Assembly: GCA_044357055.1 (NCBI GenBank)
Contig: JBIKVD010000001.1
Coordinates: forward strand, 1 to 59,588
Direction: 5' to 3'
Length of the DNA: 59,588 nt
Source of the DNA: Oligoflexales bacterium
GTDB lineage: Bacteria; Bdellovibrionota_B; Oligoflexia; Oligoflexales; JBIKVD01
Part shown: in pieces, positions 1,586-49,012 of the stretch
Position numbering within the stretch: position 1 is the stretch's first letter
Layout: every line of letters starts with the position of its first letter
The notes under the pieces: model-generated
The model's database searches: none
Seen by the model: the letters and a program-made list of their open reading frames with translations, nothing else
Told to the model about the DNA's origin: nothing
Made by a program: the position numbers and the translations under genes

Positions 1586-1659
1586 CAAATAGTTGTTTCA
1601 TCGCTGCCAATCAAATCCTACATGCCAAGATGCTGCGGATCTACCAGGGGAGTGTGTCT

Positions 1660-5116: not shown

Positions 5117-5120
5117 AATC

Positions 5121-6818: not shown

Positions 6819-6860
6819 GTCTACCTAAGTAGATCCTCCTCACCGTGGGGCCTTTTGTAG

Positions 6861-7671: not shown

Positions 7672-8451
7672 TTGGCGGAATTGCAATTGTTGAAACTGCA
7701 GGCACAAGGAAAGACAGATATTGGACGCGTTAGAAGCGTCAATCAAGACAGTTTTGCGGTTGATGACCAGCATCGCATCTATATTGTCGCAGATGGCATG
7801 GGCGGACATGCTGGGGGCGAAATCGCAAGCAAGCTATGCATCGAATGCATCCGCCAATATGTGCAAACGAATGCGACATTCTTTCAAGATAAATTAGATC
7901 GGACTCACCCCGACGGCAAGATAACGGAAACGCTTTCCTCTGGAATCAATTTTGCGTCGATGAAAATCTATGAACGTGCTCTGGAAGAGCCCGCTCTCAA
8001 AGGCATGGGCACCACGGCCACAGCTCTCTCTTTTGCGGACAATTACGCCTATTGCGCTCATGTTGGTGATAGCCGGCTGTACTTATTCCGTTGTGGTTTC
8101 ATTTACCAGCTCACATCAGATCACTCTTTGGTTAATGAGCAAATACAGGCGGGAATCCTTAGCCGTGAAGAAGCAAAATATCATCATTTGCGAAATGTCA
8201 TCACGCGAAGTGTGGGATTTCAGGAGTTTGAAGATGTTGACACCTACTTCCTAGCCGTGGAACCGGGGGATATATTCCTTATTTGTTCCGATGGGCTAAC
8301 TGGAAAGGTGGACGACATTTCTATCGCTCAACAATTGCGTGAAAAGGGTCTTGAAGCCATTAGCCCATTAATTCAAATGGCTAATGACAAAGGTGGGGAC
8401 GACAATATAACGATCGTCCTCGTCGAGGTCCAACCGCGACATCAAGAGTAG
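7672..8451 (+). CDS. PP2C-family Ser/Thr protein phosphatase (Stp/PrpC type)
   Basis: DIGRVRSVNQDSF, VADGMGGHAGGEIAS, GTTATAL, HVGDSRLY, LTSDHSLV, ICSDGLT and GGDDNITIVLVEV are present. The start codon is TTG. Confidence 0.9.
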   Translation: MAELQLLKLQAQGKTDIGRVRSVNQDSFAVDDQHRIYIVADGMGGHAGGEIASKLCIECIRQYVQTNATFFQDKLDRTHPDGKITETLSSGINFASMKIYERALEEPALKGMGTTATALSFADNYAYCAHVGDSRLYLFRCGFIYQLTSDHSLVNEQIQAGILSREEAKYHHLRNVITRSVGFQEFEDVDTYFLAVEPGDIFLICSDGLTGKVDDISIAQQLREKGLEAISPLIQMANDKGGDDNITIVLVEVQPRHQE

Positions 8452-8470
8452 GAAGTAGGGTAGCACTGAC

Positions 8471-9433
8471 ATGCAAAAAGTCACGATTATGTTGATCCCC
8501 GATGGGGGTAATGCTTGTAAGCAGTTCAAGGTATCTACGGGTTGGCTCTACGTCATACTTTTTATTATGGTGCCAAGCAGCTTTGCCACAGCTTTCTTTG
8601 CCCGAGACTATCTTGAACTTAAACGTGTCCATAAAGATTACCTCAATGTGATTAAGGAAAACGAGTCTTACCGTGGTGAGGCCAAGGTCGTCGTCGCCGA
8701 GCTCGATGAAGTAAAAAAGTCCTTAAAACGGGTCCAAGACTTTTCTAACAAGCTGCAAGAAATTGTTAGCCTCCAAACCAATACCGTAGCCAAGCAAACG
8801 GGTATTGGTCCCTTGTCTGATGAGGAGTACGACCAATTTCGCAAAGGAAATGGCGAGACCTTAGTCGCCTCCAACTCCCAATCCCTAAGTAGCCTGCCGC
8901 TAGGCATTAATTTGGATCGCTTAAATTTCAAGCCCGTTTTTGATAAAATGAGCGAAACTCGAATCCAGTCCGACAATCAGGCGATCGATATGCAACGCTT
9001 ATTGACGAGAGTTAACCAGCAAAAATATCTGCTCAACTCCATTCCTTCTATATTGCCCGTAGACGGCTGGGTTACCAGTAACTTTGGTCGCAGGGTCTCT
9101 CCGTTTACGGGCCAGCTAAGCTCACATCAGGGTCTAGATGTAGCCTCTCCTATTGGCACCCCCATTCATACCCCAGCTGACGGAGTGGTCATTTTCTCTG
9201 GCAAGAAGTCAGGGTATGGCAACTTCGTGATGATTGCTCACGGATATGGAATAGTCACACGCTATGGTCACAATGCGCAGAATCTGGCTCAGCCGGGGCA
9301 AAAAGTGAAAAGGGGAGAACAAATCGCTACCGTCGGGGACACAGGTCGCTCAACCGGTCCGCACCTTCATTACGAAGTTTGGGTCAACGGCAGCCCCGTC
9401 AATCCAGAGAAATTCATCCTAAATCTTCCTTGA
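8471..9433 (+). CDS. M23 (LytM-domain) murein endopeptidase with an N-terminal TM and coiled coil
   Basis: HQGLDVASPIGTPIHTPADGVV, GYGNFVMIAHGYGIVTRYGH and GDTGRSTGPHLHYEVWVNGSPVNP are present. Confidence 0.9.
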   Translation: MQKVTIMLIPDGGNACKQFKVSTGWLYVILFIMVPSSFATAFFARDYLELKRVHKDYLNVIKENESYRGEAKVVVAELDEVKKSLKRVQDFSNKLQEIVSLQTNTVAKQTGIGPLSDEEYDQFRKGNGETLVASNSQSLSSLPLGINLDRLNFKPVFDKMSETRIQSDNQAIDMQRLLTRVNQQKYLLNSIPSILPVDGWVTSNFGRRVSPFTGQLSSHQGLDVASPIGTPIHTPADGVVIFSGKKSGYGNFVMIAHGYGIVTRYGHNAQNLAQPGQKVKRGEQIATVGDTGRSTGPHLHYEVWVNGSPVNPEKFILNLP

Positions 9434-12497: not shown

Positions 12498-13004
12498 TTG
12501 AACTTGCATAGCATTACCGAATTCACCAGAACCGATGAGTCCATCATCGTTAGCCGCGTGCTGATGACCGTGCATGCGGAACTTGATCGCTCCTATCCCA
12601 ATCTCGCCCCTGCGCCAAAACAGTTTCGTAAGACGGTTTTTTCAGAGAATGATCCAACGGCTCTCAATCCCTCGGACGAAGATGACTCACCAACGCTGAT
12701 AAACCGTGCCATCCCTCCGCCACCAAAGCATCCGGATCCCGCGAAAACTCAAGCCGATTTTCTGCCGCCACCCCCTAGGAGTGACGTCAATCTATTGGAT
12801 CAGAAAGGGGAGGGGCCGAAAAAGGTGAGCAAGAATTCCAAAATACCCCGGACCCTCACCCAGGCAAATAGTCAGTTTCCAGAGTTCTCCCGGATTGAAA
12901 AAAATCCCTACCTACTGGAACGGCGGCGGCGAAAAATCATCTCTTTGAGTATCTTGATAAGCGTACTCATTGGACTAGCTTATTTGCTGATGCAGAAGGC
13001 CTAG
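12498..13004 (+). CDS. Hypothetical proline-rich protein with a C-terminal membrane anchor
   Basis: A 168-aa ORF with a TTG start. It has PPPPKHPDP and PPPPRSD tracts and a basic stretch followed by a C-terminal TM (RRRRKIISLSILISVLIGLAYLL). I recognised no family. Confidence 0.3.
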   Translation: MNLHSITEFTRTDESIIVSRVLMTVHAELDRSYPNLAPAPKQFRKTVFSENDPTALNPSDEDDSPTLINRAIPPPPKHPDPAKTQADFLPPPPRSDVNLLDQKGEGPKKVSKNSKIPRTLTQANSQFPEFSRIEKNPYLLERRRRKIISLSILISVLIGLAYLLMQKA

Positions 13005-18905: not shown

Positions 18906-19658
18906 CTATGACTCACCAAGCAAGCTTGCGTGCAAGTATTCTCGATTCAATTTAGCAATATAAGAAACGCTGATTTCTTTGGGGCAAGCGGCCTCACAAT
19001 CAAAGGTATTGGTGCAGTGGCCAAATCCTTCCTTGTCCATTTGCTCCACCATATTTTGGGCCCGTTGGGACCGTTCCACCTGTCCTTGAGGCAATAAAGC
19101 CAGTTGTGAAACTTTGGCAGAGACAAAGAGCATGGCCGAAGCATTCTTACAGGCAGCCACACAGGCTCCACAACCAATACAGGTGGCTGCATCAAAAGCC
19201 TGATCGGCCTGAACTTTGGAAATCGGCAAGGCATTGGCATCTTGTGCTGATCCCGCATTTACAGAGACAAAGCCACCGGCTTGAATCACGCGATCAAAGG
19301 CACTGCGATCGACGATCAAGTCCTTCAGGACTGGAAAAGCCCTAGCTCGCCAAGGCTCTATCACAATCTCATCACCGTCTTTAAAACTGCGCATATGCAA
19401 TTGGCAGGTGGCAACGCCTTTGCCAGGTCCATGAGGCTTGCCATTAATCATCAAACTGCAGCTTCCGCAAATCCCTTCGCGGCAATCATGTTCAAAGGCA
19501 ATGGGTTCCTCGCCTTTGTCTAGCAGTGACTCATTGACGACATCCAACATTTCCAAAAAGGACATGTCTGGGCTGACTTTGTCCGCAACGTAAGGAACCA
19601 TCTTTCCACTGGATTTGTCATTGGCTTGACGCCATACCTGCAAGGTAATCTTCATCAC
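18906..19658 (-). CDS. sdhB: Succinate dehydrogenase / fumarate reductase iron-sulfur subunit
   Basis: Cys clusters [26 protein letters not shown] and [13 protein letters not shown] are present. ATGA-type overlap with sdhA. Confidence 0.92.
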
Positions 19659-21568
19659 TTGTAACTCCTCGTAGCCAGCTTAACCTCTGCAAAATCCAAA
19701 GGCTCTTTATGCAAGGTAGGGGTCTTTCCTCCACCTTCATATTTCCAAACGCTGGCGTGACAAAACTCTTCGTCATTGCGCTTAGCCTCGCCATCCTCGG
19801 TTTGATGTTCGACGCGAAAATGACCTCCGCAGGATTCTTCGCGGGTTAGAGCATCTCGGCACATAAGCTCGGCAAAATCCATAAAATCTGCCACGCGCCC
19901 CGCTTTCTCTAGCGATTGATTCAAACTCTCACCGGAACCCACGACCTTAAGGTCGCTCCAAAACTCTTCACGCAGCTTGGGGATTTGCACCAGCGCCTTT
20001 TCCAAACCTGCCTTAGTACGAGCCATACCGCATTCATCCCACATAATTTTACCAAGTTGGCGATGGAAAGAATCCACCGAGCGCTTACCCTTAATGGCCA
20101 GCAATTTGTTGATTTGGGCTGTGACTTCGCCTTCGACTTTGCGGAATTCCGCGTGGTCAGCTCCCAGACCATCTGGCTTGACGCCAGCGAGATAATGGCC
20201 AATCGTATAAGGCAAAACAAAATATCCATCCGCCAAGCCTTGCATCAAAGCAGAAGCTCCCAGCCGGTTGGCACCATGATCCGAGAAATTGGCCTCGCCA
20301 ATCACGTGCAGACCGGGGATCGTGCTCATAAGATTGTAGTCGACCCAAAGACCGCCCATGGTGTAATGCACGGCGGGATAGATACGCATGGGGCGTTCAT
20401 AGGGGTTTTCGCCCGTGATTTGATGGTACATATCAAACAAATTACTGTAGCGAGCGGCGATAGCGTCCCGTCCCAGCCTTTTGATCGCGTCGGCAAAATC
20501 CAGATAGACACCCAGTCCCGTTTCGCCGATGCCACGGCCTTCGTCACAAACCTCTTTCGCTGCCCTGGATGATATGTCCCGCGGAGCAAGGTTGCCAAAG
20601 CTCGGGTATTTGCGTTCCAAATAATAATCCCGCTCGTTTTCCGGGATCTGGACCGGAGCGCGCTTGTCTCCTTTGGCCTTGGGGACCCAGACCCGCCCAT
20701 CATTGCGCAAAGACTCACTCATCAAAGTTAACTTTGATTGATAGTCGCCACTGACTGGAATGCAAGTTGGGTGAATCTGCGTAAAACAGGGGTTAGCGAA
20801 TCCCGCACCGCGCTTATAGGCCCGGTAGGTAGCAGTGACGTTGCAACCTTTGGCATTTGTAGAGAGATAAAACACATTGCCGTAGCCACCCGTTGCCAAG
20901 ACTACGGCATCAGCTGCATGGGAGGTAATCTTGCCAGAGACCAGATCCCGAACCACGATCCCCCTTGCGCGCCCGTCGATGACAACGACATCAAGCATTT
21001 CCGTGCGCGGAAACATCTTGACCCCTCCCAGGGCAATCTGACGCGACAAAGACGAATAAGCCCCGAGCAACAACTGTTGTCCAGTCTGGCCGCGAGCATA
21101 AAAAGTTCGAGAAACTTGCGCTCCCCCAAAGGACCGATTGGACAAGAGGCCCCCATACTCCCTCGCAAAAGGAACGCCCTGCGCTGTACACTGATCTATG
21201 ATGCTTCCGCTGACTTCTGCCAGCCGATGGACATTGGCTTCACGAGCGCGAAAGTCACCACCCTTAATGGTGTCGTAGAACAAGCGATGGATACTATCGC
21301 CATCCCCTTGATAGTTCTTAGCAGCATTGATGCCACCCTGTGCGGCGATACTATGAGCTCGCCGAGGGCTATCCTGAAAGCAAAAGCAAGAGACCTGGTA
21401 ACCAAGCTCCCCAAGCGTCGCTGCTGCAGCCCCGCCTGCCAAACCTGATCCAACAACCAGGACCCGGTATTTGCGCTTATTGGCGGGCGATACGAGTTTC
21501 ATGTCAAATTTGTGCTTAGTCCACTTATCTGCAATCGGCCCGGAAGGAATTTTGGCATCTAGAATCAT
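19655..21568 (-). CDS. sdhA: Succinate dehydrogenase / fumarate reductase flavoprotein subunit
   Basis: [42 protein letters not shown] and [10 protein letters not shown] are present. Size 637 aa. Confidence 0.95.
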
Positions 21569-22555: not shown

Positions 22556-23539
22556 TTAAGGAGTCGTTAGGCGAACCGTGCGGCCATATTGATCCCATGA
22601 ACTACGCCAACGAAACACTTCTTTCTTGACCTGGGCGAGGTGAATTCGGGCCATGAGCGGCCCGAAGCTTTTGAGGGGGTTATGGCGAAGGTCGATGAAC
22701 TCTAAAGAAGGCAGTTGGCTTAGATCGGGAAGGTCTTTCAAGGCGTTGTCACTCACGTCAAGATGTCTGAGTTTGGGCGCTCTCAGGAGCCAATCCACCC
22801 TCGTTAAGCCCATATTTGCGAGGCAGAGAACTTCCAAATTTGGCATTTCACCACTTTCCAACCAAGACGCGAAGGCGGTGAGAGTGTTTTGAATTTCCTC
22901 TTCTCCCGAAGGCGCTGGCCTGACGACCCACAATCCCGTGATCCCCAAGCGATCTACTTTTGTTAGAACCTCGCCCGCGACATTGCTATCTGGCGTTAGC
23001 TGCCATTTTAGGTAGGGAGTTTCAAGAGCGGGGTCCAGTTCCGTAGCCTCTTGCCCAACGAAAGATCCTTCCTCTAAAAGCGGGTCTGATGTTTTCCAAG
23101 GATAATCACCACAGGGAAGCGGTTCACGATTCGCTCTACCTGCTCGCGCAGGTCTCCCCAGACCAGCAGTGCCGGTAGGATCGTTCTCCTGCGCCACTGG
23201 CTGGAAAGGCTCCGGTTGGAGGGACTCGTCCGGGGAAACATCAGGTAGGGTCGGAGAAGCCTCCAAACAAGAGATAAAACTTGCCGGGGCTGCAAAATCT
23301 CCACCTTGCGACGTCGCTACCTCTTGATCTGGACTCCGGGAAAAGGGTTTCAAACGAACGGAAAAGCCGCCGTTTTCGCATCTGGAGTTCTCCCAGGCGA
23401 ATTCCTGCGTGGCAAAATCTAAGTAGGGTTCCAGGCGTTGCGAGTCTTGCGCCTTGTTCGTGCTTGCCGTCCTCGCGGGCTCCCCATCCCAACAGCTCGT
23501 TAGGCAAAAAATGCAGGCTATGGATAAGATGCTAGTCAT
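22556..23539 (-). CDS. Leucine-rich-repeat lipoprotein
   Basis: Signal peptide with lipobox MTSILSIACIFCLTSC. The C-terminus carries 22-residue-type LRRs (LEVLCLANMGLTRVDWLLRAPKLRHLDVSDNALKDLPDLSQLPSLEFIDLRHNPLKSF). The listed ORF extends to 23587. Confidence 0.6.
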   Translation of the reverse strand: MTSILSIACIFCLTSCWDGEPARTASTNKAQDSQRLEPYLDFATQEFAWENSRCENGGFSVRLKPFSRSPDQEVATSQGGDFAAPASFISCLEASPTLPDVSPDESLQPEPFQPVAQENDPTGTAGLGRPARAGRANREPLPCGDYPWKTSDPLLEEGSFVGQEATELDPALETPYLKWQLTPDSNVAGEVLTKVDRLGITGLWVVRPAPSGEEEIQNTLTAFASWLESGEMPNLEVLCLANMGLTRVDWLLRAPKLRHLDVSDNALKDLPDLSQLPSLEFIDLRHNPLKSFGPLMARIHLAQVKKEVFRWRSSWDQYGRTVRLTTP

Positions 23540-23680
23540 AGGTCCACATTGAAAATCCAGGTTTCCTGGGAAATCGCCACGCCTCACTATCGGTCGATTG
23601 CAATATTCCTAAAAGGGTACAATCTCCCCCGAAATAGCTCAACTTATGGCGCTGTTTGCCGAAACGCTCAAAAGGCAGCT

Positions 23681-25402
23681 ATGGCCTTTACCTCGCGAGC
23701 ATCACAGCTTATGAATCAAAAATCACCCTTGCTCTTAAGCTGGCTGTTTTCAGGTTTCGTTCTGACTTCATGGTTTGCTTGCCGACCGCGAGAATCCGTC
23801 GATGCCTGTGCAAAAGTATCTACGTTACAGCTCCCGGATCTTGCGAAGGAAACGGTCAGCGAGGGGGCATCCATCGCCATAGGCGGCTATTTAGAGACCG
23901 AATATGCTGAGGTACTCTTAGAAGCAGCTAAAAGTCTTGGCAATAGGCCACCGGACGGGGAATCCCTTCCTTATGCCACCGACGCGTACGTCGCATTGCA
24001 GATAAAAAACAAAAATGCGACGAAGGGCGTCTATGAACACCACCGTTGCACAGCGATGCTCGATTTTACCCCTATTGCTGGCGACGGAAACACCGAAGTC
24101 GATTCTTTTGATTTGGTCGTTTGGACCGCCAAGCATTGTGCCGCTTTCCCCTTTATTAAATCCTTTCAGATCGCCATATCGACTGCTGATGGCTATTTAC
24201 AAATCTCGCCCCGAAGTCACGAGTTTCAAAGTTCTGCTCCTTTGATACAGGTCCTTCCCAAGGATGACGAGCTTTTCCATCGGCTCTTTTATTACGAAAG
24301 GGGGAAAATGAACCGAGTGGTGCAAGCTCCGAGAGACGATGCTCACCCAACTCTCAGCCAGCTCGATGAAAGCAGCGTTTACGGTCGACCTCTATGCAAC
24401 AGCTTTCGAACTGATAGACTTCAGCTGAAGCCCTTTACTTTTGACAAAGCCTGCTTCAATTTTATCGATCTTGTCCCCTTGCACATGACGGTCAATCTGC
24501 AAGACATCCGTCCGAGCCTTGGTCGCGATGCCCTCAAGGTACGAATCCAGCAGCATTTACAGGCAAAAAAAAGACTCTATACGGAGCTCGGTCCCACCCT
24601 AGGCACCTGGCAGCTATGGCATAAAATCTCTAAACTGCTTTGGGTTCGGGGATATCTCGACAATCTAGGGCACAGTGTTTCTTACCTGCAAAGAACTTGC
24701 GCTGTAGCGAATGCTCCGGAACTTTGTCAGGACCCAAGTCTGCTTGAGGCCTTTGTTTTTGAGACCAAGACTTACGAGAAGATCGCGAACTCACTTCAAG
24801 ATTCTGTCAAACCCCTTCTAGGTGAAATGCTGGCAGATTTCCACGGGACAGCATGGCAACTTTCAGAAAATTTCTGGCAAAGATTTCTGAAGTGGCTTCA
24901 AATGACGAAAGACTTGCAGATCTCATGGAATTCCTCTCAGCAGCCAATAACGCAGTATCTATCTATGCCACTGCCAGAATTCTTAAAAAAAACGACTTAC
25001 CCTGCCATTATCCACCCAGGTGGGATCGCCTTAATAGCAAAAAGTGGTGAACTCCCTTGGCAACCCGGAGATTCGGGAGCGATGATCAGTTACAAGGGTT
25101 TTATACCCTTTCTCAGCCTCTCAACTGTCGATGACGAAGAATCCTCGGGCGGATTTGCTGCATCCCCGCTGCCTGCCTACCAAAAGCCAACCATAGCAGG
25201 GGGTTCTCAAGATAGTTTGCTCAACGAAGAGCCGCCAGATTCGCGAAGTCAAGACCAGCCATCTCTCCCGCCCCCTCAGGATTCGGCGGCAACACCCATA
25301 CCTTTGGAGGCACCAGGTCCGAACGCGACTATCTATGACGACGAACAGATTGAAGAGGGTCTCGGCGAGCAAGCCATGCACCCTACCCAAGACTGCGGGT
25401 GA
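23681..25402 (+). CDS. Secreted or lipoprotein with a divergent, expanded trypsin-like (S1) serine protease signature and a Pro/Gln/Ser-rich tail
   Basis: Signal-like N-terminus with a Cys (LLLSWLFSGFVLTSWFAC). RCTAML..(24 aa)..DLVVWTAKHC resembles CGGSLI..WVLTAAHC. NFIDLVPL resembles NDIALL, and PGDSGAMISYKG resembles GDSGGP. Alternative starts lie at 23711 and 23549. That this is a real gene is likely; the protease assignment is tentative. Confidence 0.45.
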   Translation: MAFTSRASQLMNQKSPLLLSWLFSGFVLTSWFACRPRESVDACAKVSTLQLPDLAKETVSEGASIAIGGYLETEYAEVLLEAAKSLGNRPPDGESLPYATDAYVALQIKNKNATKGVYEHHRCTAMLDFTPIAGDGNTEVDSFDLVVWTAKHCAAFPFIKSFQIAISTADGYLQISPRSHEFQSSAPLIQVLPKDDELFHRLFYYERGKMNRVVQAPRDDAHPTLSQLDESSVYGRPLCNSFRTDRLQLKPFTFDKACFNFIDLVPLHMTVNLQDIRPSLGRDALKVRIQQHLQAKKRLYTELGPTLGTWQLWHKISKLLWVRGYLDNLGHSVSYLQRTCAVANAPELCQDPSLLEAFVFETKTYEKIANSLQDSVKPLLGEMLADFHGTAWQLSENFWQRFLKWLQMTKDLQISWNSSQQPITQYLSMPLPEFLKKTTYPAIIHPGGIALIAKSGELPWQPGDSGAMISYKGFIPFLSLSTVDDEESSGGFAASPLPAYQKPTIAGGSQDSLLNEEPPDSRSQDQPSLPPPQDSAATPIPLEAPGPNATIYDDEQIEEGLGEQAMHPTQDCG

Positions 25403-25406
25403 GCCC

Positions 25407-27458
25407 ATGCCGTGGCTGAAGAGACTTACCGGCAAGATTCCTCCTCGGGCGGTTTCTTTCATCGCCCTTCTTGCCGCTTTTGGCCTATTTTTTGGGCAAC
25501 AATGGGTCGTCTCAGAAAAACTGAGTGTCGAAAAGCGAATCGCCACCATAAAAAAAGATGGTTATTTCCTTGCTCTTGATACCTGGCAGGCCGAATTCTA
25601 TTCTTGTGAAAACTATCTAGGATGTCCCTCAGATTCCGTCGCTCTTGGCTTTGCTGAGAAGAGGGCAGGCGAGATCGTCCCCACAGGGCCGTCGGCATGG
25701 ACCTTTGGAAAGTCCCAAAATATTCCCCAACCCGCGAATCTAGCCTTGCTTACTTACCATCTTCCAACTGAAGAACTCCCAAATCCCGAAGATTGGCCCT
25801 ACGTAGCTCTGGTCATCCCTCGATCATTGCATCAATTATTGGAGGTGCAAATCGGTGAAACCAGTTACCCAGTCTTTGCCAGCCATGGGCAGACCATTCA
25901 TATAAACGCGGCAACGAGCGCTCTCTTCCAAAATCCTTTGCTCAAGCTGCGCTTTGAATTTGCTAAATATCCCCGCTTTGGCCCTCTCGAATTTCCTATC
26001 GCCTTGGTTGATGCCAAAAACGCCCAATCCTATGCCGATTCTGCGGCTACCCTCGAAAGCCGATCTCTGACTGGTCGCGACTGGCAAATGGCTGTTCCCA
26101 TGCTCATTGCCTTTCTCATGTTATGGATCAATCACGCGCCTGCTTATGCCGCATTAGCGATATATGGAATGGCCTTTAGCCTTCGCTCCGCCCTTTATTT
26201 CCTTGCTGAGAACCAATTCTTACCACATTGGCAGGCTTGGATTTGCATCGCGCACTTGCTCACCATTGCCGCCTTGGTGAAATTTCTATCCCTGCTCTCC
26301 GGTGTGGGAAAAGCTGCGGAAAGAAAGTTCCTGTTTTCTGGCATGTTGCTAACTGCCGTCGCCTGCGTTTGCACATTATGGTTTGGCGAGTCCGTTTCAA
26401 CAGACGCAAGATATGTTGATTTGATCGCTGATTGTGTTCTAGGCATCGTTGGGATTTTGCTTTTAAGTTTTAGCATTTTTTCTCATAAACCCAAGAACGG
26501 TCCTGCCTTTTTTCCGACGGTCGAGGATCTGCAACATTTATCGTTCGTCCGACGCAGGAAAACTCATTCATTGAGTCTTGGTGTCGCGGCTGCTGGTTTA
26601 TTCGTTCTCTTAGTAGACAATGTTTATAGCATCGTGCAATTGAAGGTCATGGGTCAAAAGCCCCCAACCGACATACTCATCATTGTCCATTTCTTAGCTC
26701 TATGCGCTGCCGTTTTCGTGAGGCTCGGCACGACTCGTGAAATGATTAGCTCCCAAGGAAGATTGCTTGCCCGCTATTTAGCGAAATCGAGGGAAAAGCT
26801 GCGCTTTTCGCGACTTATGAATGCTCTAATTTCTTCGAGCCATCATCACGATCAGGATGGCATTACTTGGGAAGTAACGAAAAGTTCGCAGGATATGGTA
26901 GGCGGCGACTGGCATGACCTTCGCGTTATGAGTGGCAAGGAGCACAAGGTCCTAGTTTGCGCCTTATTTGATGTGACCGGGCATGATCTCTTGGCTGCAG
27001 GACATCATGTGATGATAGCAGCTCAATGGAATCTTGCTCTTTCCCATCTGCAACTCGCCCTAAACCTGGAAACGAACGCTTCTGCGTTTCTCGCAAATTT
27101 CGCAGGCCCCTGGCTCCAAAGCCTAAATGCTCAATGCTTTCACGCACCAGGGAAACTAGGCGCAAGTGGTGCGGTCATCTTATGGGATTTTTTGGGAGAA
27201 ACCATCTATATAGCGGCCGCTGGGCAAAGGTCTCTAAGGGTCCTGGATCTCTCTGAGGCCTCAAATTTGCTTCATTTTTCCAGTGATCGCTTAGGCCTCG
27301 TTGCTCAAGGGCATTTTGCGACAAAAGCGATTCCATCCGGCAGTGTAAGTGGCCTTCAGATTGCGAGTGACGGTGCTGAGCCCTTCGATCAGAAGTCTTC
27401 AAGAGATGATGCTACCTCCATTCTTATAGGCTTTAAAAAGCAAAGCCAAACAAGGTAG
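25407..27458 (+). CDS. 7TM receptor (7TMR-DISM-like) fused to a SpoIIE/PP2C-type phosphatase domain
   Basis: It has an N-terminal TM, an extracytoplasmic domain of about 200 aa, then seven predicted TMs. The C-terminal domain carries GGDWHDL, LFDVTGHDLLAAG, SDGAEPF and DDATSILIGF (SpoIIE family pattern). The ATG lies 4 nt after the upstream stop. Confidence 0.75.
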   Translation: MPWLKRLTGKIPPRAVSFIALLAAFGLFFGQQWVVSEKLSVEKRIATIKKDGYFLALDTWQAEFYSCENYLGCPSDSVALGFAEKRAGEIVPTGPSAWTFGKSQNIPQPANLALLTYHLPTEELPNPEDWPYVALVIPRSLHQLLEVQIGETSYPVFASHGQTIHINAATSALFQNPLLKLRFEFAKYPRFGPLEFPIALVDAKNAQSYADSAATLESRSLTGRDWQMAVPMLIAFLMLWINHAPAYAALAIYGMAFSLRSALYFLAENQFLPHWQAWICIAHLLTIAALVKFLSLLSGVGKAAERKFLFSGMLLTAVACVCTLWFGESVSTDARYVDLIADCVLGIVGILLLSFSIFSHKPKNGPAFFPTVEDLQHLSFVRRRKTHSLSLGVAAAGLFVLLVDNVYSIVQLKVMGQKPPTDILIIVHFLALCAAVFVRLGTTREMISSQGRLLARYLAKSREKLRFSRLMNALISSSHHHDQDGITWEVTKSSQDMVGGDWHDLRVMSGKEHKVLVCALFDVTGHDLLAAGHHVMIAAQWNLALSHLQLALNLETNASAFLANFAGPWLQSLNAQCFHAPGKLGASGAVILWDFLGETIYIAAAGQRSLRVLDLSEASNLLHFSSDRLGLVAQGHFATKAIPSGSVSGLQIASDGAEPFDQKSSRDDATSILIGFKKQSQTR

Positions 27459-27499
27459 GCGAGGTTGGGTGCACCAGATGGACCTTATCAGCAGCAACT

Positions 27500-28468
27500 C
27501 TACATGCTCACTGCCATTCCAAAATTCACCGCTTGATGCTGTTCGGAATAGCCAAGATAGGGAACTCTTTGGGTATAGGAGAGCGTGAATTTATCATTTA
27601 CCAATGCAACGCCTCCCGAAAGGCTCTCCCTTTCCCCCTCAAACTCTCGCGCATAAGCTCCGAGAAGGCGAAAGAACTCGTAGAATTTTACACTAAAGGA
27701 CGCTATCCCTTGTCGCTCGGCATCGCGTTCCAACTCCGCGATTTCCCAGCGGACTCGCTCGCGCTGCACCCCATCTAGATGCACACTCAACTGTCCGTCC
27801 ATCATGAGATAGGCTAGACCGACGCGATAGGTCGTGGGTGCATAATCAGCAATAGAACGATTCGCCAAATTCTCTGCGGAGACACCAAAGCGCAGTGCTG
27901 GGCTGATGAGTCCCGCGATACCTAATCCAAGGGCCATGCCCTTCACTTCCCGGTACTGTTCGTCTGCGGTAAGAACCGTATCATCAGGCTCCAGAGCTTG
28001 CACATACTGTCCATTGATGCCCACAGAAATTTTACCGACGGGCTGCGCCAACCCCAGGGCGAAGCGTTTCTCTATGGAAGAATCAAACGCTTGGTCTTTC
28101 AGCTTTCGCTTGGCCCAATCGAGTTCATAATCCTCCTGAAAACTTGTATAGCTCGCACCAGCTGCCAAGCCATTTAAGGTCGTACCGTCGACAATTCCTG
28201 CTTGAAAGAATTCGCGCCCTTGGCTGGGCCAGTGATATCCGGCATTGACTTTATACATTCGCTCCATCACCAACATGGCCGGATTTTGGCGGATAGAGGC
28301 AAGCCCACTCACCGCTGCCGTGCCACCGTTGGCGAGTCCATTGGCGTGATCTCCCACTGACTCGATTTCGTCTGGAACCCGGTAGAGATTTAAGTCCTCT
28401 GCCCTTAGCAAATTCGTCGCCAGAAGACCAAAGACGAGAGTTGAGGATTTCAGGAAGAATGTGCGCAT
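27500..28468 (-). CDS. Putative outer-membrane beta-barrel protein (FadL/PorV-like N-terminal motif)
   Basis: Signal peptide MRTFFLKSSTLVFGLLATNLLRAEDL. The GLANGGTAAVSGLASIRQNPAML motif is present, and alternating hydrophobic beta-strand patterning runs throughout. Confidence 0.5.
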   Translation of the reverse strand: MRTFFLKSSTLVFGLLATNLLRAEDLNLYRVPDEIESVGDHANGLANGGTAAVSGLASIRQNPAMLVMERMYKVNAGYHWPSQGREFFQAGIVDGTTLNGLAAGASYTSFQEDYELDWAKRKLKDQAFDSSIEKRFALGLAQPVGKISVGINGQYVQALEPDDTVLTADEQYREVKGMALGLGIAGLISPALRFGVSAENLANRSIADYAPTTYRVGLAYLMMDGQLSVHLDGVQRERVRWEIAELERDAERQGIASFSVKFYEFFRLLGAYAREFEGERESLSGGVALVNDKFTLSYTQRVPYLGYSEQHQAVNFGMAVSM

Positions 28469-32054: not shown

Positions 32055-32945
32055 TTAGTCATCGACCTCCACATCCAAAGTGCCTTTTTCTCTCACAAAC
32101 TGCTTGAGTTTTTGCATAATGCGCGACTCGATTTGTCGAGCCCGCTCGCGAGTCACTCCATAGCGATCGCCAATATCCTGCAAAGTCAAAGGGACCTCGG
32201 CCAAGAGGCGATCCTGAAAGATCTTCAGTTCACGCTCGTTCAGGGATTGCTTGAACTCATCCAGATATTCCTTAAATAGGCTCATTTCCTGGTTGGAGGC
32301 CAAAACATCCACAATCGAGGGACGTTGATCCTCCAGCCATTCCCCCCGGGCTGAGGAGGAATCATCTCGACTAAAGGGGGTGTCCAGAGATAAATCCGGT
32401 GCTCCTAGCCGTTTCTGCATCTCCAGAACTTCGCTCTCTTTGACATTTAAATTCTCCGCAATGAGCTTGGGATCGGCGCGGTCATATTCCGCGACCAAGC
32501 GGTCTGCTTCTTTCTTAAGATTGTAAAAGAGCTTGCGCTGGGCAGCTGTCGTGCCCATTTTCACTTGGCTTTTTTGTTCCATGATGTGCTTAAGGATAAA
32601 AGCGCGTATCCACCAGGCCGCATAAGTTGATAACTTTACTTGTTTATATGGATTGAAGCGCTTGACCGCCTGCATCAGGCCATAATTTCCTTCTTGGATC
32701 AAATCCAGAAAACTGATCTGAGCCTGTCTAAAATCATTTGCAATTTTGACCACCAACCGTAAATTCGAGGTAACCAAACGCTGAGCGGCTTCCTGATCGC
32801 CCTCCTCAAAATGTCTTAGGGCGAGTTGATACTCCTCTTCAGCATTGAGGAGGGGATATCGCGCCACCTCCTGCAAATAGATTTGCAGCGGTGACAAGGT
32901 GGCCAACGACTTGGGGCCACTGACACTAGGTAGCTTACTCACCAA
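32055..32945 (-). CDS. rpoH: RNA polymerase sigma-32 (heat-shock sigma factor)
   Basis: LIQEGNYGLMQAVKRFNPYKQVKLSTYAAWWIRA is present, with the RpoH-box-like QRKLFYNLKKE and region 4 LTLQDIGDRYGVTRERARQIE. The start codon is GTG. Confidence 0.88.
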   Translation of the reverse strand: MVSKLPSVSGPKSLATLSPLQIYLQEVARYPLLNAEEEYQLALRHFEEGDQEAAQRLVTSNLRLVVKIANDFRQAQISFLDLIQEGNYGLMQAVKRFNPYKQVKLSTYAAWWIRAFILKHIMEQKSQVKMGTTAAQRKLFYNLKKEADRLVAEYDRADPKLIAENLNVKESEVLEMQKRLGAPDLSLDTPFSRDDSSSARGEWLEDQRPSIVDVLASNQEMSLFKEYLDEFKQSLNERELKIFQDRLLAEVPLTLQDIGDRYGVTRERARQIESRIMQKLKQFVREKGTLDVEVDD

Positions 32946-39399: not shown

Positions 39400-40368
39400 A
39401 TGTTTGAACATATAAGTGTCTTAAAGCAAGAGTTGAAGCAAATGCTCAAGGTGGAAAGCACAGATATCGTTGTGGATGCAACTCTGGGGGGAGGGGGTCA
39501 CGCCGCCGAATTCATGCCACCACTTCATTCTGCACGCTTGATTGGCATTGATAGAGATCAAGTTGCTATCGCCTCCTGCGGGAAACGCTTTGAAGAGGTT
39601 ATTGCGAAGGGACATTTCCTTCTTGTACACGCACCTTTTTCACAAATCGATCAAATTCTTACCTCGCTCGCTTTACAACCCAATGTTATTTATGCTGATT
39701 TAGGGGTCTCTAGTCCGCAGCTCGACACTCCCGAACGAGGCTTCTCTATGCGCTTTGCGGGGCCTCTTGACATGCGGATGGACCAATCGGCAAACATGCC
39801 AACCGCAAAAGACATCCTCGCCATGTACTCGATTGAAGACTTAACAAGGATTTTCTTCGAATATGGCGAAGAGCCCAAAGCAAAATATTACGCCCGTGCC
39901 ATCGATAAACGCCGCGCGGAACGCGCCTTTGAAGACACTAAAGAGTTTGCCGATTTTCTGCAGTCGGTTAATCCCTACCGATCTGCAAGTAAGAAACATC
40001 CCGGAACAAAAATTTTTCAAGCCTTGCGGATTGAAGTCAACCAGGAGTTAGCGCAAATTGAAGAATTCCTCAAGGCTTCCTATCGCCACCTCGCTGTGGG
40101 TGGTCGCATGGGGGTCATAACTTTCCACTCCTTGGAAGACCGTTTGGTGAAGAATTTCTTTCAGTCTGTTGGCAAAAGTAAATCTGATCCCGCCATGCGC
40201 CACTTGCCTATGCGGGATATCGATGTGCAAAAGCCACCAGCTACCATTTCGAGACCTTTTCCCTGTGTGCCCACTGATCTCGAATGTCAACAAAATCCAC
40301 GCGCGCGAAGCGCGAAGTTACGCGTATTGGTTAAACAACAAGAAGGAAGCCTGCCATGGAAGTCTTAA
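39400..40368 (+). CDS. rsmH: 16S rRNA (cytosine1402-N4)-methyltransferase RsmH
   Basis: HISVLKQE, VDATLGGGGHA, ADLGVSSPQLD, GPLDMRMD and ITFHSLEDRLVK are present. Confidence 0.93.
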   Translation: MFEHISVLKQELKQMLKVESTDIVVDATLGGGGHAAEFMPPLHSARLIGIDRDQVAIASCGKRFEEVIAKGHFLLVHAPFSQIDQILTSLALQPNVIYADLGVSSPQLDTPERGFSMRFAGPLDMRMDQSANMPTAKDILAMYSIEDLTRIFFEYGEEPKAKYYARAIDKRRAERAFEDTKEFADFLQSVNPYRSASKKHPGTKIFQALRIEVNQELAQIEEFLKASYRHLAVGGRMGVITFHSLEDRLVKNFFQSVGKSKSDPAMRHLPMRDIDVQKPPATISRPFPCVPTDLECQQNPRARSAKLRVLVKQQEGSLPWKS

Positions 40369-40631
40369 AAAATCGCTTTATGATCAGTGTCATCTTAACA
40401 AGTTCCTTACTGTTTGTTTTCGCGTTCTTTCGCGTTCACATTCTTATCAATACGACCGAACTCGGTTACCAAATTGCTAAGCTAAAAGATCGAGAAGAAG
40501 TGTTGCTGGAGCGTCAGAGTGAATTGGCGATGAAAATCGCGAAAGTCACCTCTCGATCCCACTTGAGTGTTATGTCTGGCTTACCAGTAGAAGACCTTAA
40601 ATCCAAGGGTGGAAAGATTGCTGCGCGATAG
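40356..40631 (+). CDS. ftsL: Cell division protein FtsL-like
   Basis: 91 aa with one TM followed by a coiled coil, positioned between rsmH and ftsI. It overlaps both neighbours. Confidence 0.6.
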   Translation: MEVLKNRFMISVILTSSLLFVFAFFRVHILINTTELGYQIAKLKDREEVLLERQSELAMKIAKVTSRSHLSVMSGLPVEDLKSKGGKIAAR

Positions 40632-42432
40632 GTTGAAAGCTCTATTTCCTGCTAAAAAACGCGATAAAGCTACTATTATATCGGGTAGTTTTAACAATTC
40701 GCGCTCGTCTATCGTTCGTTGGGCTGTATACCTAGTCTTCGTTGCGGTTTTCACACGCGCTTTGTGGATTCACCTTTTTCCCCCGTCACCAGAATTCCTT
40801 AACAATTTAGCAAAGCATCAATACCGCAAGAAAATTGAGCTAGCTCCCTACCGGGGCAATATCATGGACCGCAGGGGCGAGCCACTGGCCCTAAGCATTA
40901 AAAAATCTTCGTTTTATCTGAATCCTCGATTATTTTCCGCCTCAGCTGCGAATCTTCACGAGCTTGCCAAGGTATTGAATCTGTCTGAAGGCAAGCTCAC
41001 GAGTCTTCAAGCTAAGAAAGGTTATTTTGCTTGGTTAGCGAGACAAGTATCGTCGGAGCAAGCAAGTCGGGTCCGGAATATGAATCTTCCTGGTGTTTTT
41101 GAGATTCGGGAACCTGCCCGTTTCTATCCTCTGGGTGAGGCCGCTTCCCAAATACTCGGATTTGTCGGAATCGATAATCAAGGACTTTCAGGCTTGGAAA
41201 TGATCTATGACAAGAACCTTCGGGGGGAAGTTGTCGATTATATGCCTGCCATTGACGCTCGGGGCGCAAAAATATATTTAGACAGCCAATATGCTATCCC
41301 CTTCTTGCCAGGTGATTCTCTGCAACTGACCTTGGATCGGGTCGTGCAAGAGATCGCAGAAGAAGAGTTGGAAAAGGGTGTGCGAGAAGCCGGAGCTAAA
41401 GGCGGAATAGCCATAGTCAGCGATCCTCACACCGGCCAAATCCTAGCGATGGCAAATTTTCCAAAATTTGACCCTAATCGAGTTAGCGCGAAGAGTTTTC
41501 AAAATGCCAAGAACCGAGCTGTGGTCGACATCTTCGAACCCGGATCCATCTCCAAACCTCTCGTCGTCGCCACGGCTTTGCAGGAAAAGCATGTAAAAAT
41601 TGGTGAAATGTTCAATTGTGAGAAATCTGGGCGTTATGTCATTCCCGGGGGAGTGATTAACGATGACCACCCGGAAGAGCATCTGGATGTTTCTGGCATC
41701 ATTACGCAGTCAAGCAACATTTGTATGTACAAGATCGCCAAACGCATGGGAAGGGAACCACTCTATAACGGTCTGAGAAAATTTGGCATCGGAGATCCCG
41801 CGATACGCCTTGGATTTGCAAGTGAAGTGGGAGGTCGCATTGCCGCTTGGAATCATTGGAAAGAGATCCGTTTTGCGAACGTGGCCTTTGGCCAGGGATT
41901 TAGTACCACGGGGTTGGAGATGGTCGCGTCTTATGGCGCCATCGCGAACGGCGGGCAACTGATGCGCCCCTATTTGGTTTCGAAGGTCGTACGTCCCGAT
42001 GGGTCTACCCATGCAAACGTGAACCCTCAAGTTGTTACCCAGGTTCTTCATCCTGAAGTTGCCAGTGAAATGAGAAAAATGCTTGAAAGAACCACCACAG
42101 AAGGTACGGGATCAAAAGCACAAACCATAGATTTTACGGTTGCCGGGAAAACGGGGACCGCAGAGGTCTTTGACCCGCTCCTCAAGGCCTATTCGAAAAC
42201 CAAGAGAAAGGCTAGCTTCATCGGTTTTGCACCTGCTCGTGACCCTCACTTGGTGATCTTCGTCCTCATCGACGAACCCAGTAAGCAGCCCTACTATGGT
42301 GGCCTCTGGGCTGCTCCGGTTTTCTCGCAAATATCCGCTCGCACCCTGCACTATCTGAACGTGAAGCCCGACAAGGAGGATATTTCTCATGGTATCGATC
42401 TCGCTGTAGAAAAACTCCCTGTGCCGTTGTAA
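40609..42432 (+). CDS. ftsI: Class B penicillin-binding protein / peptidoglycan D,D-transpeptidase FtsI
   Basis: An N-terminal TM plus GSISKP (SxxK), SSN and KTGTAEV motifs. The start codon is GTG. Confidence 0.88.
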   Translation: MERLLRDRLKALFPAKKRDKATIISGSFNNSRSSIVRWAVYLVFVAVFTRALWIHLFPPSPEFLNNLAKHQYRKKIELAPYRGNIMDRRGEPLALSIKKSSFYLNPRLFSASAANLHELAKVLNLSEGKLTSLQAKKGYFAWLARQVSSEQASRVRNMNLPGVFEIREPARFYPLGEAASQILGFVGIDNQGLSGLEMIYDKNLRGEVVDYMPAIDARGAKIYLDSQYAIPFLPGDSLQLTLDRVVQEIAEEELEKGVREAGAKGGIAIVSDPHTGQILAMANFPKFDPNRVSAKSFQNAKNRAVVDIFEPGSISKPLVVATALQEKHVKIGEMFNCEKSGRYVIPGGVINDDHPEEHLDVSGIITQSSNICMYKIAKRMGREPLYNGLRKFGIGDPAIRLGFASEVGGRIAAWNHWKEIRFANVAFGQGFSTTGLEMVASYGAIANGGQLMRPYLVSKVVRPDGSTHANVNPQVVTQVLHPEVASEMRKMLERTTTEGTGSKAQTIDFTVAGKTGTAEVFDPLLKAYSKTKRKASFIGFAPARDPHLVIFVLIDEPSKQPYYGGLWAAPVFSQISARTLHYLNVKPDKEDISHGIDLAVEKLPVPL

Positions 42433-42520
42433 AAGCGAGTATGAATTTGGTGCAAAGCTTGTCGATTTCGAAAATTTGACGGGCCCTTATCTTTCGTTAC
42501 CCCTCTGGGGAAGGCATCTT

Positions 42521-44143
42521 ATGAATTCTTTACCTAATAACTCCGACCGATCTGGAGTCTCCTTTAGCACGAAGTCCTTGTTAGACACTTTGCATTCCTT
42601 TGGGATTTTTATAAAAATTCATGGGGAAGTACCCAGCCAGCTCGCGGGAGTCTCCGCTGATTCTCGCTCTGTAACGCAAGACTCCCTTTTCATTGCGCGT
42701 CAGGGTGTGGCGAGCGACGGGCATAATCATATCTCCCAGGCTTTGGCCAAAGGGGCAAACCTGATCTTTGCCGAACGCATGGTCCCCCAGTTAAAGTCAG
42801 CGCCCGGCTACGCTATCGTCTCCGATATTGCCAAAATCTATGGGATTGCCTCAAGCTTGCACTTTGGACAGCCAGAGAAAAAACTGATTTTTATTGGCCT
42901 AACAGGTACCAATGGTAAAACATCGACATCACTTCTGTTGTCGGATCTTTTGGAGCAACATCAAGTTCCGACCATGGTCATTGGCACCACAGGGGTCTAT
43001 ATTAGGGGTGTAAAGACTCATTCCTCAAGTCACACCACGCCAGATGCATTGGCTTTTTTCGGCTATCTGTCAGAAGCCCACCAAGCTGGAGTTACCCATG
43101 TGATTATGGAAGCTTCTTCCCATGGTTTAGCGCAAGAGCGATTTTTTCCCGCAAAACTCAGTCACGGGATTTTCACTAGTTTTTCCCAAGATCATTTAGA
43201 CTATCACCAGACAATGGAGCAATACCTTCAAGCAAAACTGAAGCTCTTTTCTGCCAGCTGCTCCTATTCAGAGGCAAGATATGTTGTTCACTCCTCTTTA
43301 TTATCTAGGGTGCTAAAAAGCTTTCCCAACCTGCAGGATCGCCTTTGTAGCTACGCCTTGGTAGAACAAAATCAGGACCAAAATGTCGTATTTTCTGATA
43401 CAGGTGGCTTTGAGCCATCTGCGAAACATTTTTGGATCACCAAAGCTTCTAGTGCCAAAAGCGCAACCATAACGACTTGTCACATTGGTGCCGGCACTCA
43501 GACCTTGCGCTCCTATCAGATCCCTTTTCATGCTGAATTTCTTTTAGAAAACACCCTTGCCGCAATTTTAACCTTTTTTGACATTAGGGGCAGCTGGCCC
43601 GATGCGACCCATGTACAAAGGCTTAGACAAATTCCCGGGAGAATGCAGCGTGTTCCCATTCAAGGTGTTGGGCCTGCAGTCTACGTAGACTATGCGCATT
43701 CGCCAGATGCTCTGCAAAGAGTGTTGTTAGATCTGCAAAGGAACAAAGGTAACGGACGTTTACTATTGGTATTTGGTTGCGGGGGGGATCGAGACCGAAC
43801 CAAGCGTCCAATCATGGGAGCGATTGCCGCGGAAATTGCTGACGATATCTTTTTGACGAGCGATAACCCACGCAGTGAAAGCCCAGAAGCAATTTTGAAG
43901 GAAATATCCCGTGGCATCCCTGAGTCCAAGCGGGCCCAACTCATTGCGAATCGCAAGGAAGCCATTCAAGCGGCCATTGAGAAGGCAAATCCGCTCGACA
44001 CAATTCTTATTGCGGGAAAGGGACATGAATCAGGTCAAATGATCGGTTCGATCGTTCATCCCTTCGATGACGTTGAAGTCGCCAGAGCCCTACTGCTGGA
44101 GCGATTCCCGCAGGGCGCCTCCAAGACGGAGGCGGTGCGATGA
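42521..44143 (+). CDS. murE: UDP-MurNAc-L-Ala-D-Glu:diamino-acid ligase MurE
   Basis: GLTGTNGKTSTS, DYAHSPDAL, GCGGDRDRTKRP, SDNPRSESPE and AGKGHE are present. An alternative TTG start lies at 42476. Confidence 0.88.
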   Translation: MNSLPNNSDRSGVSFSTKSLLDTLHSFGIFIKIHGEVPSQLAGVSADSRSVTQDSLFIARQGVASDGHNHISQALAKGANLIFAERMVPQLKSAPGYAIVSDIAKIYGIASSLHFGQPEKKLIFIGLTGTNGKTSTSLLLSDLLEQHQVPTMVIGTTGVYIRGVKTHSSSHTTPDALAFFGYLSEAHQAGVTHVIMEASSHGLAQERFFPAKLSHGIFTSFSQDHLDYHQTMEQYLQAKLKLFSASCSYSEARYVVHSSLLSRVLKSFPNLQDRLCSYALVEQNQDQNVVFSDTGGFEPSAKHFWITKASSAKSATITTCHIGAGTQTLRSYQIPFHAEFLLENTLAAILTFFDIRGSWPDATHVQRLRQIPGRMQRVPIQGVGPAVYVDYAHSPDALQRVLLDLQRNKGNGRLLLVFGCGGDRDRTKRPIMGAIAAEIADDIFLTSDNPRSESPEAILKEISRGIPESKRAQLIANRKEAIQAAIEKANPLDTILIAGKGHESGQMIGSIVHPFDDVEVARALLLERFPQGASKTEAVR

Positions 44144-45576: not shown

Positions 45577-45587
45577 GGGCATCCATC

Positions 45588-49007: not shown

Positions 49008-49012
49008 CTCGG

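Follow-up and report, generated by a model that had tools for sequence, protein, structure and literature searches.

A transmembrane PP2C-family phosphatase gene paired with a serine-protease-like lipoprotein gene in an Oligoflexales bacterium

Four adjacent genes for exported or membrane proteins in the genome of an Oligoflexales bacterium raise the question of whether they constitute a single surface-sensing system, as an initial annotation had proposed, and if not, which of them belong together. The genes lie in a stretch of 59,588 nucleotides (nt) (GenBank assembly GCA_044357055.1, contig JBIKVD010000001.1, positions 1 to 59,588; hereafter the window) and encode a leucine-rich repeat (LRR) lipoprotein, a serine-protease-like lipoprotein (PROT), a transmembrane PP2C/SpoIIE phosphatase (REC) and a probable outer-membrane beta-barrel protein (OMP). 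Comparison with homologous loci shows that the conserved unit is the PROT-REC pair, joined probably by the LRR lipoprotein in the clade of the window, and not a four-gene system.

The four open reading frames (ORFs) were reproduced at the positions and on the strands first assigned to them, and their lengths agree with the gene calls made on the 383-kb source contig (Table 1). These calls also place the cluster where it had been reported to lie, between purLQS-sdhCAB and yajC. Read directly, the junction between PROT and REC has the stop codon of the former 4 nt before the ATG of the latter, and the OMP gene converges on the REC gene across a gap of 41 nt. Export or membrane signals are present in all four products, in the form of two lipoboxes, the transmembrane helices of REC and a signal-like segment at the N-terminus of OMP.

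Conservation of the PROT-REC pair

The two closest relatives of REC, P0003 and P0006, share 24–26% identity with it and are from other organisms. P0003 is represented by loci L091 and L092, from an NCBI metagenome-assembled genome (MAG), and P0006 by locus L093 and a 329-kb JGI contig. In L091, a gene of 591 amino acids (aa) is located directly upstream of the REC homologue, in the same direction and overlapping it by 14 nt. For P0006 a 579-aa gene is found in the same position and direction with an overlap of 11 nt, both in L093 and on the 329-kb contig, where it is known from the gene call alone. The upstream gene in L091, L092 and L093 is homologous to full-length PROT (BLASTP 3e-46, 24% identity; tblastn 3e-46 and 2e-43). 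The sister loci are considered to come from different organisms because their GC content (41–44%, against 49% in the window) and tetranucleotide usage differ, and their flanking genes differ as well. Even the P0006 contig, which derives from the same JGI sample as the window, has a GC content of 43.8% compared to 48.9%, and a tetranucleotide correlation of 0.80 compared to the window's own minimum of 0.85. The adjacency of PROT and REC is therefore retained between organisms whose copies are about 24% identical, and in the clade of the window the pair is predicted to be translationally coupled.

A gene of 348 aa whose product gives a faint match to LRR_4 is positioned divergently upstream of the PROT homologue on the 329-kb contig, in the same layout as in the window, and the LRR lipoprotein probably belongs to the conserved unit in this clade. 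In a rough neighbour-joining tree REC, P0003 and P0006 fall in one clade, and the PROT-linked receptors of Silvanigrellaceae, described below, fall in another.

The fourth gene had been proposed as a component of the system, and here the comparison leads elsewhere. No OMP homologue was found in any of the 94 fetched loci. In its place the sister loci encode a convergent protein of 438–447 aa that matches HATPase_c only, without HisKA, followed in L091 and on the 329-kb contig by the gene for a sigma-54-type response regulator; L093 ends before that point. In L091 the two genes occupy positions 3917-5260 and 5611-7074 of the locus. The window has no such pair beside REC and carries the OMP gene there instead. 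This GHKL ATPase and the sigma-54 response regulator are candidate downstream partners in the sister loci. A STAS-like N-terminus on the ATPase was also considered and dropped, as HATPase_c was the sole Pfam match at E <= 1. The OMP gene stands outside the conserved module, as a neighbour peculiar to the window genome. Its product is a probable outer-membrane barrel, with weak profile matches to PorV/PorQ (NF033709, E = 0.0021, 17.7 bits against a cut-off of 90), TraF_2 (E = 0.03) and Phenol_MetA_deg (E = 0.06), and nothing relevant was returned by a sequence search of the PDB.

The wider distribution of the REC family was explored by scanning one genome per GTDB species with an alignment of a 17-sequence REC subset, giving loci L001–L019. 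Full-length relatives were found only in MAGs labelled Silvanigrellaceae, Silvanigrella, Oligoflexia or Oligoflexales, or more broadly Pseudomonadota, Proteobacteria or Betaproteobacteria, often with several per genome. Named relatives of full length come from Silvanigrellaceae, Oligoflexia and MAGs with poor taxonomic placement, a group that has been little studied and counts emerging opportunistic pathogens among its members (PMC10645651; PMC11385108). No homologues of the LRR lipoprotein, PROT or OMP were detected in the neighbourhoods of L001–L019 at the tblastn level, and metagenome scans with PROT subfamily A6 and REC subfamily A9 returned nothing.

A second branch of the pairing was found at the level of motifs and profiles. 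In L008 the gene for a lipoprotein of ~760 aa converges on the REC homologue, and in L012 such a gene overlaps the stop codon of the REC homologue; the two proteins are mutually homologous (2e-91). These Silvanigrellaceae proteins and PROT share the lipobox and the motifs RC..L.EF, AAHC, Y.D..VL and GDSG...LSTV..E..SGG, and hhalign relates the two PROT subfamilies with a probability of 93%. A profile search recovered 22 members of the ~760-aa family, all annotated as hypothetical, and the neighbourhoods of seven were examined. Four of the seven adjoin the gene for a SpoIIE protein of 717–722 aa, with REC preceding the PROT-like gene in L082/083, L086/087 and L089 and the two converging in L081; in a further one (L090) the SpoIIE protein is encoded 2.4 kb away in a different context. 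L008 and L081 carry the PROT-like gene in inverted orientation relative to the other Silvanigrellaceae loci. Apart from L090, the six linked Silvanigrellaceae cases make up one syntenic block, with the order ACS - trypsin - deaminase - REC - PROT-like - TldD/PmbA. Within this block, one or two lipoprotein genes matching Pfam Trypsin (266 and ~410 aa) are situated on one side of the pair, and TldD/PmbA on the other.

Lipoproteins of other kinds also accompany REC relatives. By a simple heuristic, approximately 8 of the 19 REC-family loci have a neighbour bearing a lipobox, as does L094, which points to partnership with lipoproteins as a recurrent feature of the family. In L094 the REC-family gene P0032 is preceded, in the same direction, by genes for a 412-aa OMP-like protein and a 264-aa TPR lipoprotein, neither of which is a PROT homologue. 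The former has a signal peptide and a C-terminal end (...ISYNF) as often seen in outer-membrane barrels, and a Peptidase_S8 gene is located downstream of the REC-family gene. The neighbourhood of P0005 contains no obvious partner. Co-occurrence across genomes, the test proposed at the outset, is seen for PROT and REC, probably for the LRR lipoprotein on the evidence of one sister locus, and not for OMP.

Features of REC, PROT and the LRR lipoprotein

Full-length PROT and REC matched nothing in Pfam, NCBIfam, the PDB or PADLOC (a resource for anti-phage defence, in which the LRR lipoprotein and OMP likewise gave no match), and a word-indexed search of 5.8 billion proteins recovered each of them only as itself. 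The C-terminal 225 aa of REC matched SpoIIE (PF07228) at E = 0.041 and 14.3 bits, which is below the cut-off of 25 bits. Relatives came only from exhaustive searching with HMMER, run over 1.84 billion cluster representatives. It gave 62 of them, at 20–28% identity, most of them 650–770 aa in length and aligned over most of that length. Pfam SpoIIE is found in 50 of the 52 full-length relatives at E <= 1 and in 49 at E <= 0.001, with a best value of 1.4e-27. When compared to the PDB, the family profile matched the PP2C domains of RssB, Rv1364c-RsbU, SpoIIE, SiaA and RsbX (2.7e-17 to 1e-5; 2.7e-17 to 8.5e-10 for the first four). An AlphaFold2 (AF2) model of REC built on the family alignment had a mean predicted local distance difference test score (pLDDT) of 83.9 and a predicted template modelling score (pTM) of 0.73, and the top 50 Foldseek matches to it were all PP2C structures (RssB, RsbX, RsbU and SpoIIE; best E 4.6e-8), with target-normalised TM-scores of 0.69–0.73. 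The assignment of REC as a PP2C/SpoIIE phosphatase is therefore solid at the level of family and fold, and a catalytic role is predicted by homology.

The architecture of REC is that of a seven-transmembrane (7-TM) receptor with a cytoplasmic SpoIIE/PP2C domain, much as first described, with hydropathy and the AF2 model giving the former part and profile and fold the latter. By hydropathy, ~165-190 hydrophilic residues separate the N-terminal transmembrane segment from the block of further ones. Behind an N-terminal transmembrane helix and a beta-rich ectodomain (~54-202 in the model), the AF2 model places the seven helices at residues 203-241, 245-268, 275-298, 302-329, 334-359, 373-415 and 423-459. 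The loss of the metal-binding Asp residues of SpoIIE would have spoken against this description; all of them are present (Asp501, Asp504, Asp522, Asp655, Asp667 and Asp668, in the motifs GDW.D, DVTGH, SDG and DD.T). Several polar residues of the 7-TM bundle are conserved throughout the family (Asp338, Asp342, Asn405, Lys418, Asp422, Arg260 and a D/N-His pair at 242-243), and their conservation points to an intramembrane site for a ligand or ion, or to a signalling network there.

Membership of the 7TMR-DISM family, which had also been attributed to REC, was not borne out, and it is in architecture alone that the two resemble each other. 7TMR-DISM_7TM (PF07695) does not match REC even at E <= 10 on sub-fragments, and among the 52 relatives it matches none at E <= 0.001 and two at ~0.1 (best 0.095). 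Neither 7TMR-DISMED1 nor 7TMR-DISMED2 gave a Pfam match in REC or the 52 relatives, and no Pfam family at all matched the N-terminal ectodomain and 7-TM region of REC.

PROT is taken here to represent a new lipoprotein family in which a serine-protease-like triad is conserved. Its hydrophobic segment (residues 16-34) ends in WFAC, in which Cys34 is the lipobox Cys and aligns with the invariant Cys of the L-x-A-C lipobox in 16 relatives; the lipoboxes of PROT and the LRR lipoprotein were read by eye from the sequence and not by a dedicated predictor. The candidate triad consists of His152, Asp263 and Ser465 (Table 1). These residues, together with Asp464, Gly466 and Cys34, are invariant in the alignments of both subfamilies (A5 and A6), which are mutually ~20–25% identical, whilst Gly463 is invariant in A5 only. 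Both subfamilies also keep several further Cys residues, the motif LSTV..E..SGG after the Ser and a near-terminal Cys (Cys572 in PROT). The original label of trypsin-like stands as far as these motifs and the His/Asp/Ser order are concerned, but not as a family assignment. A Pfam scan of 17 PROT-family members at E <= 1 gave no match to a peptidase family or to any other, PDB sequence and profile searches with the PROT families gave no significant match to a solved S1 structure, and hhalign of these families against Pfam-Trypsin lipoproteins from the same genomes aligned the His motif only (probability 26% and 0.7%, over 11–13 columns). In a permissive hhalign comparison with genuine trypsin-family lipoproteins the lipobox, His and Asp motifs were collinear, though not significantly so.

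The AF2 model of PROT, built on a 17-sequence alignment, reached a pLDDT of 40.7, and its Foldseek matches were only ribosomal-protein noise. In this low-confidence model a helical insert of ~130 aa spans residues ~278-409, and the region of His152 and Asp263 shows three strands, a short His-bearing helix, two strands, the Asp and a further strand, an arrangement whose resemblance to the N-terminal barrel of chymotrypsin is suggestive only. The C-terminal tail of PROT is rich in Pro, Ser, Asp and Gln and probably disordered; it contains an IYDD motif, which members of the window subfamily share in the A6 alignment, and may act in docking or tethering. An internal LRR in the ~760-aa Silvanigrellaceae proteins, which would have hinted at an LRR-PROT fusion, was rejected, as the only PDB match was at E = 5.7, hhalign against the LRR protein of the window was not significant and Pfam LRR was absent from every member scanned.

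The label of LRR lipoprotein was upheld for the divergent gene, as its product matches LRR_4 (E = 2.6e-12, 47 bits) and LRR_8 (E = 7.6e-8, 32.4 bits) above the cut-off of 27 bits in each case and has a lipobox, LTSC, at residues 13-16 (Cys16). The profile matches span residues 233-295, in a region of three to four leucine-rich repeats at ~228-297, and the N-terminal half is rich in Pro, Glu and Ser.

Possible roles of the pair

The reading that we consider probable, with appreciable doubt, is that of an envelope signalling module made up of REC and PROT with the LRR lipoprotein alongside, in which the lipoproteins act as co-sensors. The two lipoproteins would serve REC in this capacity from the periplasm or the outer membrane, the LRR protein binding a protein ligand or partner and PROT binding or cleaving something. 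Through physical interaction, the state of the lipoprotein complex would be read by the ectodomain of REC and relayed inwards, by way of the 7-TM bundle, to the PP2C domain; this domain may then dephosphorylate a phospho-Ser/Thr protein encoded elsewhere in the window genome. Such an output is what would be expected for REC by analogy with SpoIIE and RsbU. SpoIIE dephosphorylates SpoIIAA, and Chlamydia RsbU is an example of a PP2C with a membrane or periplasmic sensor (PMC8256260).

Several observations weigh against this reading. The conservation of the LRR gene comes down to one locus, with a faint Pfam match, known from the gene call alone. REC itself departs from nearly invariant residues of its family (G527D, H607Q, P608R and W544A, the first three at sites conserved in 92–100% of the family), and because these substitutions are at such positions the copy in the window may be of altered or reduced activity. 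No gene for a substrate is found nearby, in agreement with what was noted at the outset: Pfam scans of most other ORFs in the 59.6-kb window detected no gene for a STAS protein, anti-sigma factor or kinase. Unrelated genes surround most REC paralogues (e.g., HrpB, SMC, DapF and Lnb_N), and of the PROT-family loci, L084/085 has no SpoIIE gene within 6 kb and L088 has none in the 6 kb downstream, its contig ending 225 nt upstream. Lastly, the six Silvanigrellaceae cases are not independent events, as they represent one orthologous syntenic block.

The invariance of the PROT triad nevertheless favours catalysis, and a more specific possibility is that PROT is an active serine protease which switches the PP2C domain by cleaving either the ectodomain of REC or a protein that the LRR lipoprotein has captured. 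We regard such a protease-activated receptor as rather unlikely. The persistence of the triad and of D-S-G across subfamilies of ~20–25% identity is consistent with it, as are the tight translational coupling predicted for PROT and REC, the collinearity of lipobox, His and Asp motifs under permissive hhalign and the chymotrypsin-like local secondary structure near His152 and Asp263 in the low-confidence model. PROT nevertheless lacks significant similarity to any peptidase family by Pfam, PDB or hhalign, its AF2 model at this pLDDT is unusable, the PROSITE-style context of both motifs is not satisfied on reading the sequence, and no cleavage site can be predicted. Distinctly unlikely, in our estimation, is the fuller form in which a protein cue from outside the cell or from the outer membrane is captured by the LRR lipoprotein and a highly derived trypsin-like PROT cleaves either this cue or the ectodomain, switching the 7-TM PP2C receptor. 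Proteolysis-gated signalling from PROT to REC is speculation.

PROT and the LRR lipoprotein could also be a periplasmic quality-control or remodelling pair, comparable to a protease and its adaptor lipoprotein, with REC sharing their regulon or being a substrate for turnover, and with no signal passing to the phosphatase. The Silvanigrellaceae block is indeed rich in proteases (the pair is flanked by two Pfam Trypsin genes and TldD/PmbA), and the module in the window adjoins an outer-membrane-barrel gene and yajC. Against such a role in envelope maintenance, which we think quite improbable, PROT and REC still overlap, or nearly so, at ~24% identity in different genomic contexts and the pairing outlasts inversion and a change in gene order; coupling of this start/stop kind typifies proteins that are produced in fixed stoichiometry. 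The same observations bear on the disfavoured view, to our minds highly improbable, that four unrelated envelope proteins are neighbours through inherited synteny without functional coupling. This view would accommodate the lack of conservation of the OMP gene alongside the others, the unrelated neighbours of many REC paralogues and the sharing of one block by the six Silvanigrellaceae cases other than L090. The flanks, however, are entirely different in the window, L091 and the Silvanigrellaceae block, and the pair is still present; the branches also differ in gene order and orientation, and reading frames that overlap are seen repeatedly. Functional coupling is preferred to inherited synteny because adjacency persists at ~24% identity, with different flanks, an inversion and a change of order. 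An envelope signalling module with lipoprotein co-sensors thus remains the reading we prefer.

The surrounding window and comparison with known systems

The coordinates of the cluster and of other features are collected in Table 1. A consensus sigma-70 scan of the intergenic region between LRR and PROT, where divergent promoters are presumed, found nothing above chance, and neither did Rfam, repeat and promoter/terminator scans in and around the cluster. The nearest signalling genes in the window encode a soluble PP2C_2 phosphatase and a sigma-70-family protein. The PP2C_2 gene is located directly upstream of an M23 peptidase gene, which is a second phosphatase-beside-peptidase pairing in the same window.

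Elsewhere in the window, a division and cell-wall cluster contains mraW, ftsI, murE, murF, ftsW, murC, a 309-aa ORF, ftsA and ftsZ. The 309-aa ORF, between murC and ftsA, has no Pfam match, and mraY, murD, murG and ddl were not detected between murF and ftsA. A further four ORFs have no Pfam match, and a MotA/ExbB-family gene lies shortly upstream of two of these (178 and 561 aa). Among ~15 billion proteins, no cluster mates at >=90% identity exist for SdhA or for the alpha and beta subunits of ATP synthase, and the window appears, from its sequences, to be from a deep, sparsely sampled lineage.

Table 1. Positions of the cluster, its sub-features and other features; positions are those of the window unless a locus is named.
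Feature	Position (nt)	Strand	Length	Residues	Basis or remark
LRR lipoprotein gene	22556-23539	-	327 aa		ORF list and gene call on 383-kb source contig
LRR/PROT divergent intergenic region	23540-23680		141 nt		Presumed site of divergent promoters
PROT, serine-protease-like lipoprotein gene	23681-25402	+	573 aa		ORF list and gene call on 383-kb contig
PROT candidate triad His (TAKHC)	24134			152	
PROT candidate triad Asp (NFIDL)	24467			263	
PROT candidate triad Ser (GDSG)	25073			465	
PROT C-terminal tail	25148-25402			490-573	
PROT/REC stop/start junction	25400-25409	+			TGA-GCCC-ATG, gap of 4 nt
REC, transmembrane PP2C/SpoIIE phosphatase gene	25407-27458	+	683 aa		ORF list and contig gene call
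REC TM0	25443-25520			13-38	Hydropathy and AF2
REC beta-rich ectodomain	25521-26012			~39-202	AF2; conserved Cys67/Cys73 pair, FGP motif
REC seven TM helices	26013-26783			203-459	Hydropathy plot and AF2
REC PP2C alpha/beta domain, cytoplasmic	26844-27434			480-676	AF2
OMP, probable outer-membrane beta-barrel gene	27500-28468	-	322 aa		ORF list and contig gene call
L091 HATPase_c to sigma-54 response regulator region	L091:3917-7074				Sister locus
L093 HATPase_c gene	L093:3487-4803				Sister locus
L094 REC-family locus (P0032)	L094:79-4195				
Soluble PP2C_2 phosphatase gene	7672-8451		259 aa		
PP2C_2 and M23 peptidase gene pair	7672-9433				
Sigma-70-family gene	32055-32945				
MotA/ExbB-family gene	1630-2469				
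ORF without Pfam match	2965-3501		178 aa		
ORF without Pfam match	3431-5116		561 aa		
ORF without Pfam match	6861-7481		206 aa		
ORF without Pfam match	12498-13004		168 aa		
SdhA	18906-21568				
Division/cell-wall cluster	39400-52240				
ATP synthase alpha/beta	54879-58828				

Membrane-bound PP2C/SpoIIE phosphatases are common in bacterial genomes, yet very few have a known input signal. A sensor phosphatase with genetically fixed periplasmic partners, in the form of an LRR binder and the triad-bearing PROT, is a testable handle on that input, and two protein families without a database model are added, namely the PROT lipoproteins and the sensor formed by the ectodomain and 7-TM region of REC. 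If proteolysis gates REC, this would be a new signalling logic in bacteria, and if it does so through LRR capture and PROT cleavage, a new signalling family in Silvanigrellaceae, Oligoflexia and similar MAGs, as well as a bacterial counterpart of protease-activated 7-TM receptors. If REC is not gated in this way, the module would be one more lipoprotein co-sensor system, and the first found with a PP2C output in the literature searched.

No description of the PROT/LRR/REC gene combination, as had been anticipated, or of the PROT or REC families was found in the literature searches, and no profile search placed the genes in an already characterised operon. Among known proteins, REC is comparable to the SpoIIE/RsbU-type PP2Cs (B. 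subtilis SpoIIE, Chlamydia RsbU and P. aeruginosa SiaA) in its PP2C domain, its membrane-spanning N-terminal sensor and its retention of the metal Asp residues. It differs from them in a sensor region that matches no Pfam family, in the coupling of its gene to lipoprotein genes, in the substitutions G527D and H607Q/P608R of the window copy and in having no STAS, anti-sigma or kinase gene nearby. PROT, for its part, shares with S1 peptidases the His-Asp-Ser order and the core motifs TA[AK]HC and GDSG, and genuine Pfam Trypsin lipoproteins are encoded beside the Silvanigrellaceae pair. Significant sequence or profile similarity to S1 is lacking, however, and the distance from Asp to Ser is ~200 aa in PROT, including the ~130-aa helical insert, as opposed to roughly 90 in trypsin.

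The 7TMR-DISM receptors, a family defined previously and including RetS, LadS, NicD and RgsP (PMC6107284), also combine an ectodomain, seven TM helices and a cytoplasmic signalling domain, but the REC family is not detected by the Pfam models 7TMR-DISM_7TM or 7TMR-DISMED2. RgsP works with the membrane-anchored peptidase RgsM (PMC6107284), so that the pairing of a 7-TM receptor with a peptidase-like envelope protein has a precedent, although RgsM is a metallopeptidase and PROT a Ser-triad lipoprotein.

Lipoprotein co-sensors are known from RcsF-Rcs, NlpE-Cpx and QseG-QseE. In a further case, the outer-membrane lipoprotein YfiB controls the inner-membrane enzyme YfiN via periplasmic YfiR (PMC4655355), and the YfiBNR system resembles the locus described here in encoding a lipoprotein with an inner-membrane signalling enzyme, in a similar three-gene layout. 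The output here is a PP2C phosphatase, in contrast to the diguanylate cyclase or histidine kinase of the YfiBNR, Rcs, Cpx and QseE systems, and the LRR and protease-like lipoproteins are unrelated to YfiB, RcsF, NlpE and QseG. A PP2C output domain and lipoprotein-assisted envelope sensing are thus both already known, and what is new is the PROT family, the sensor region of REC and their conserved coupling.

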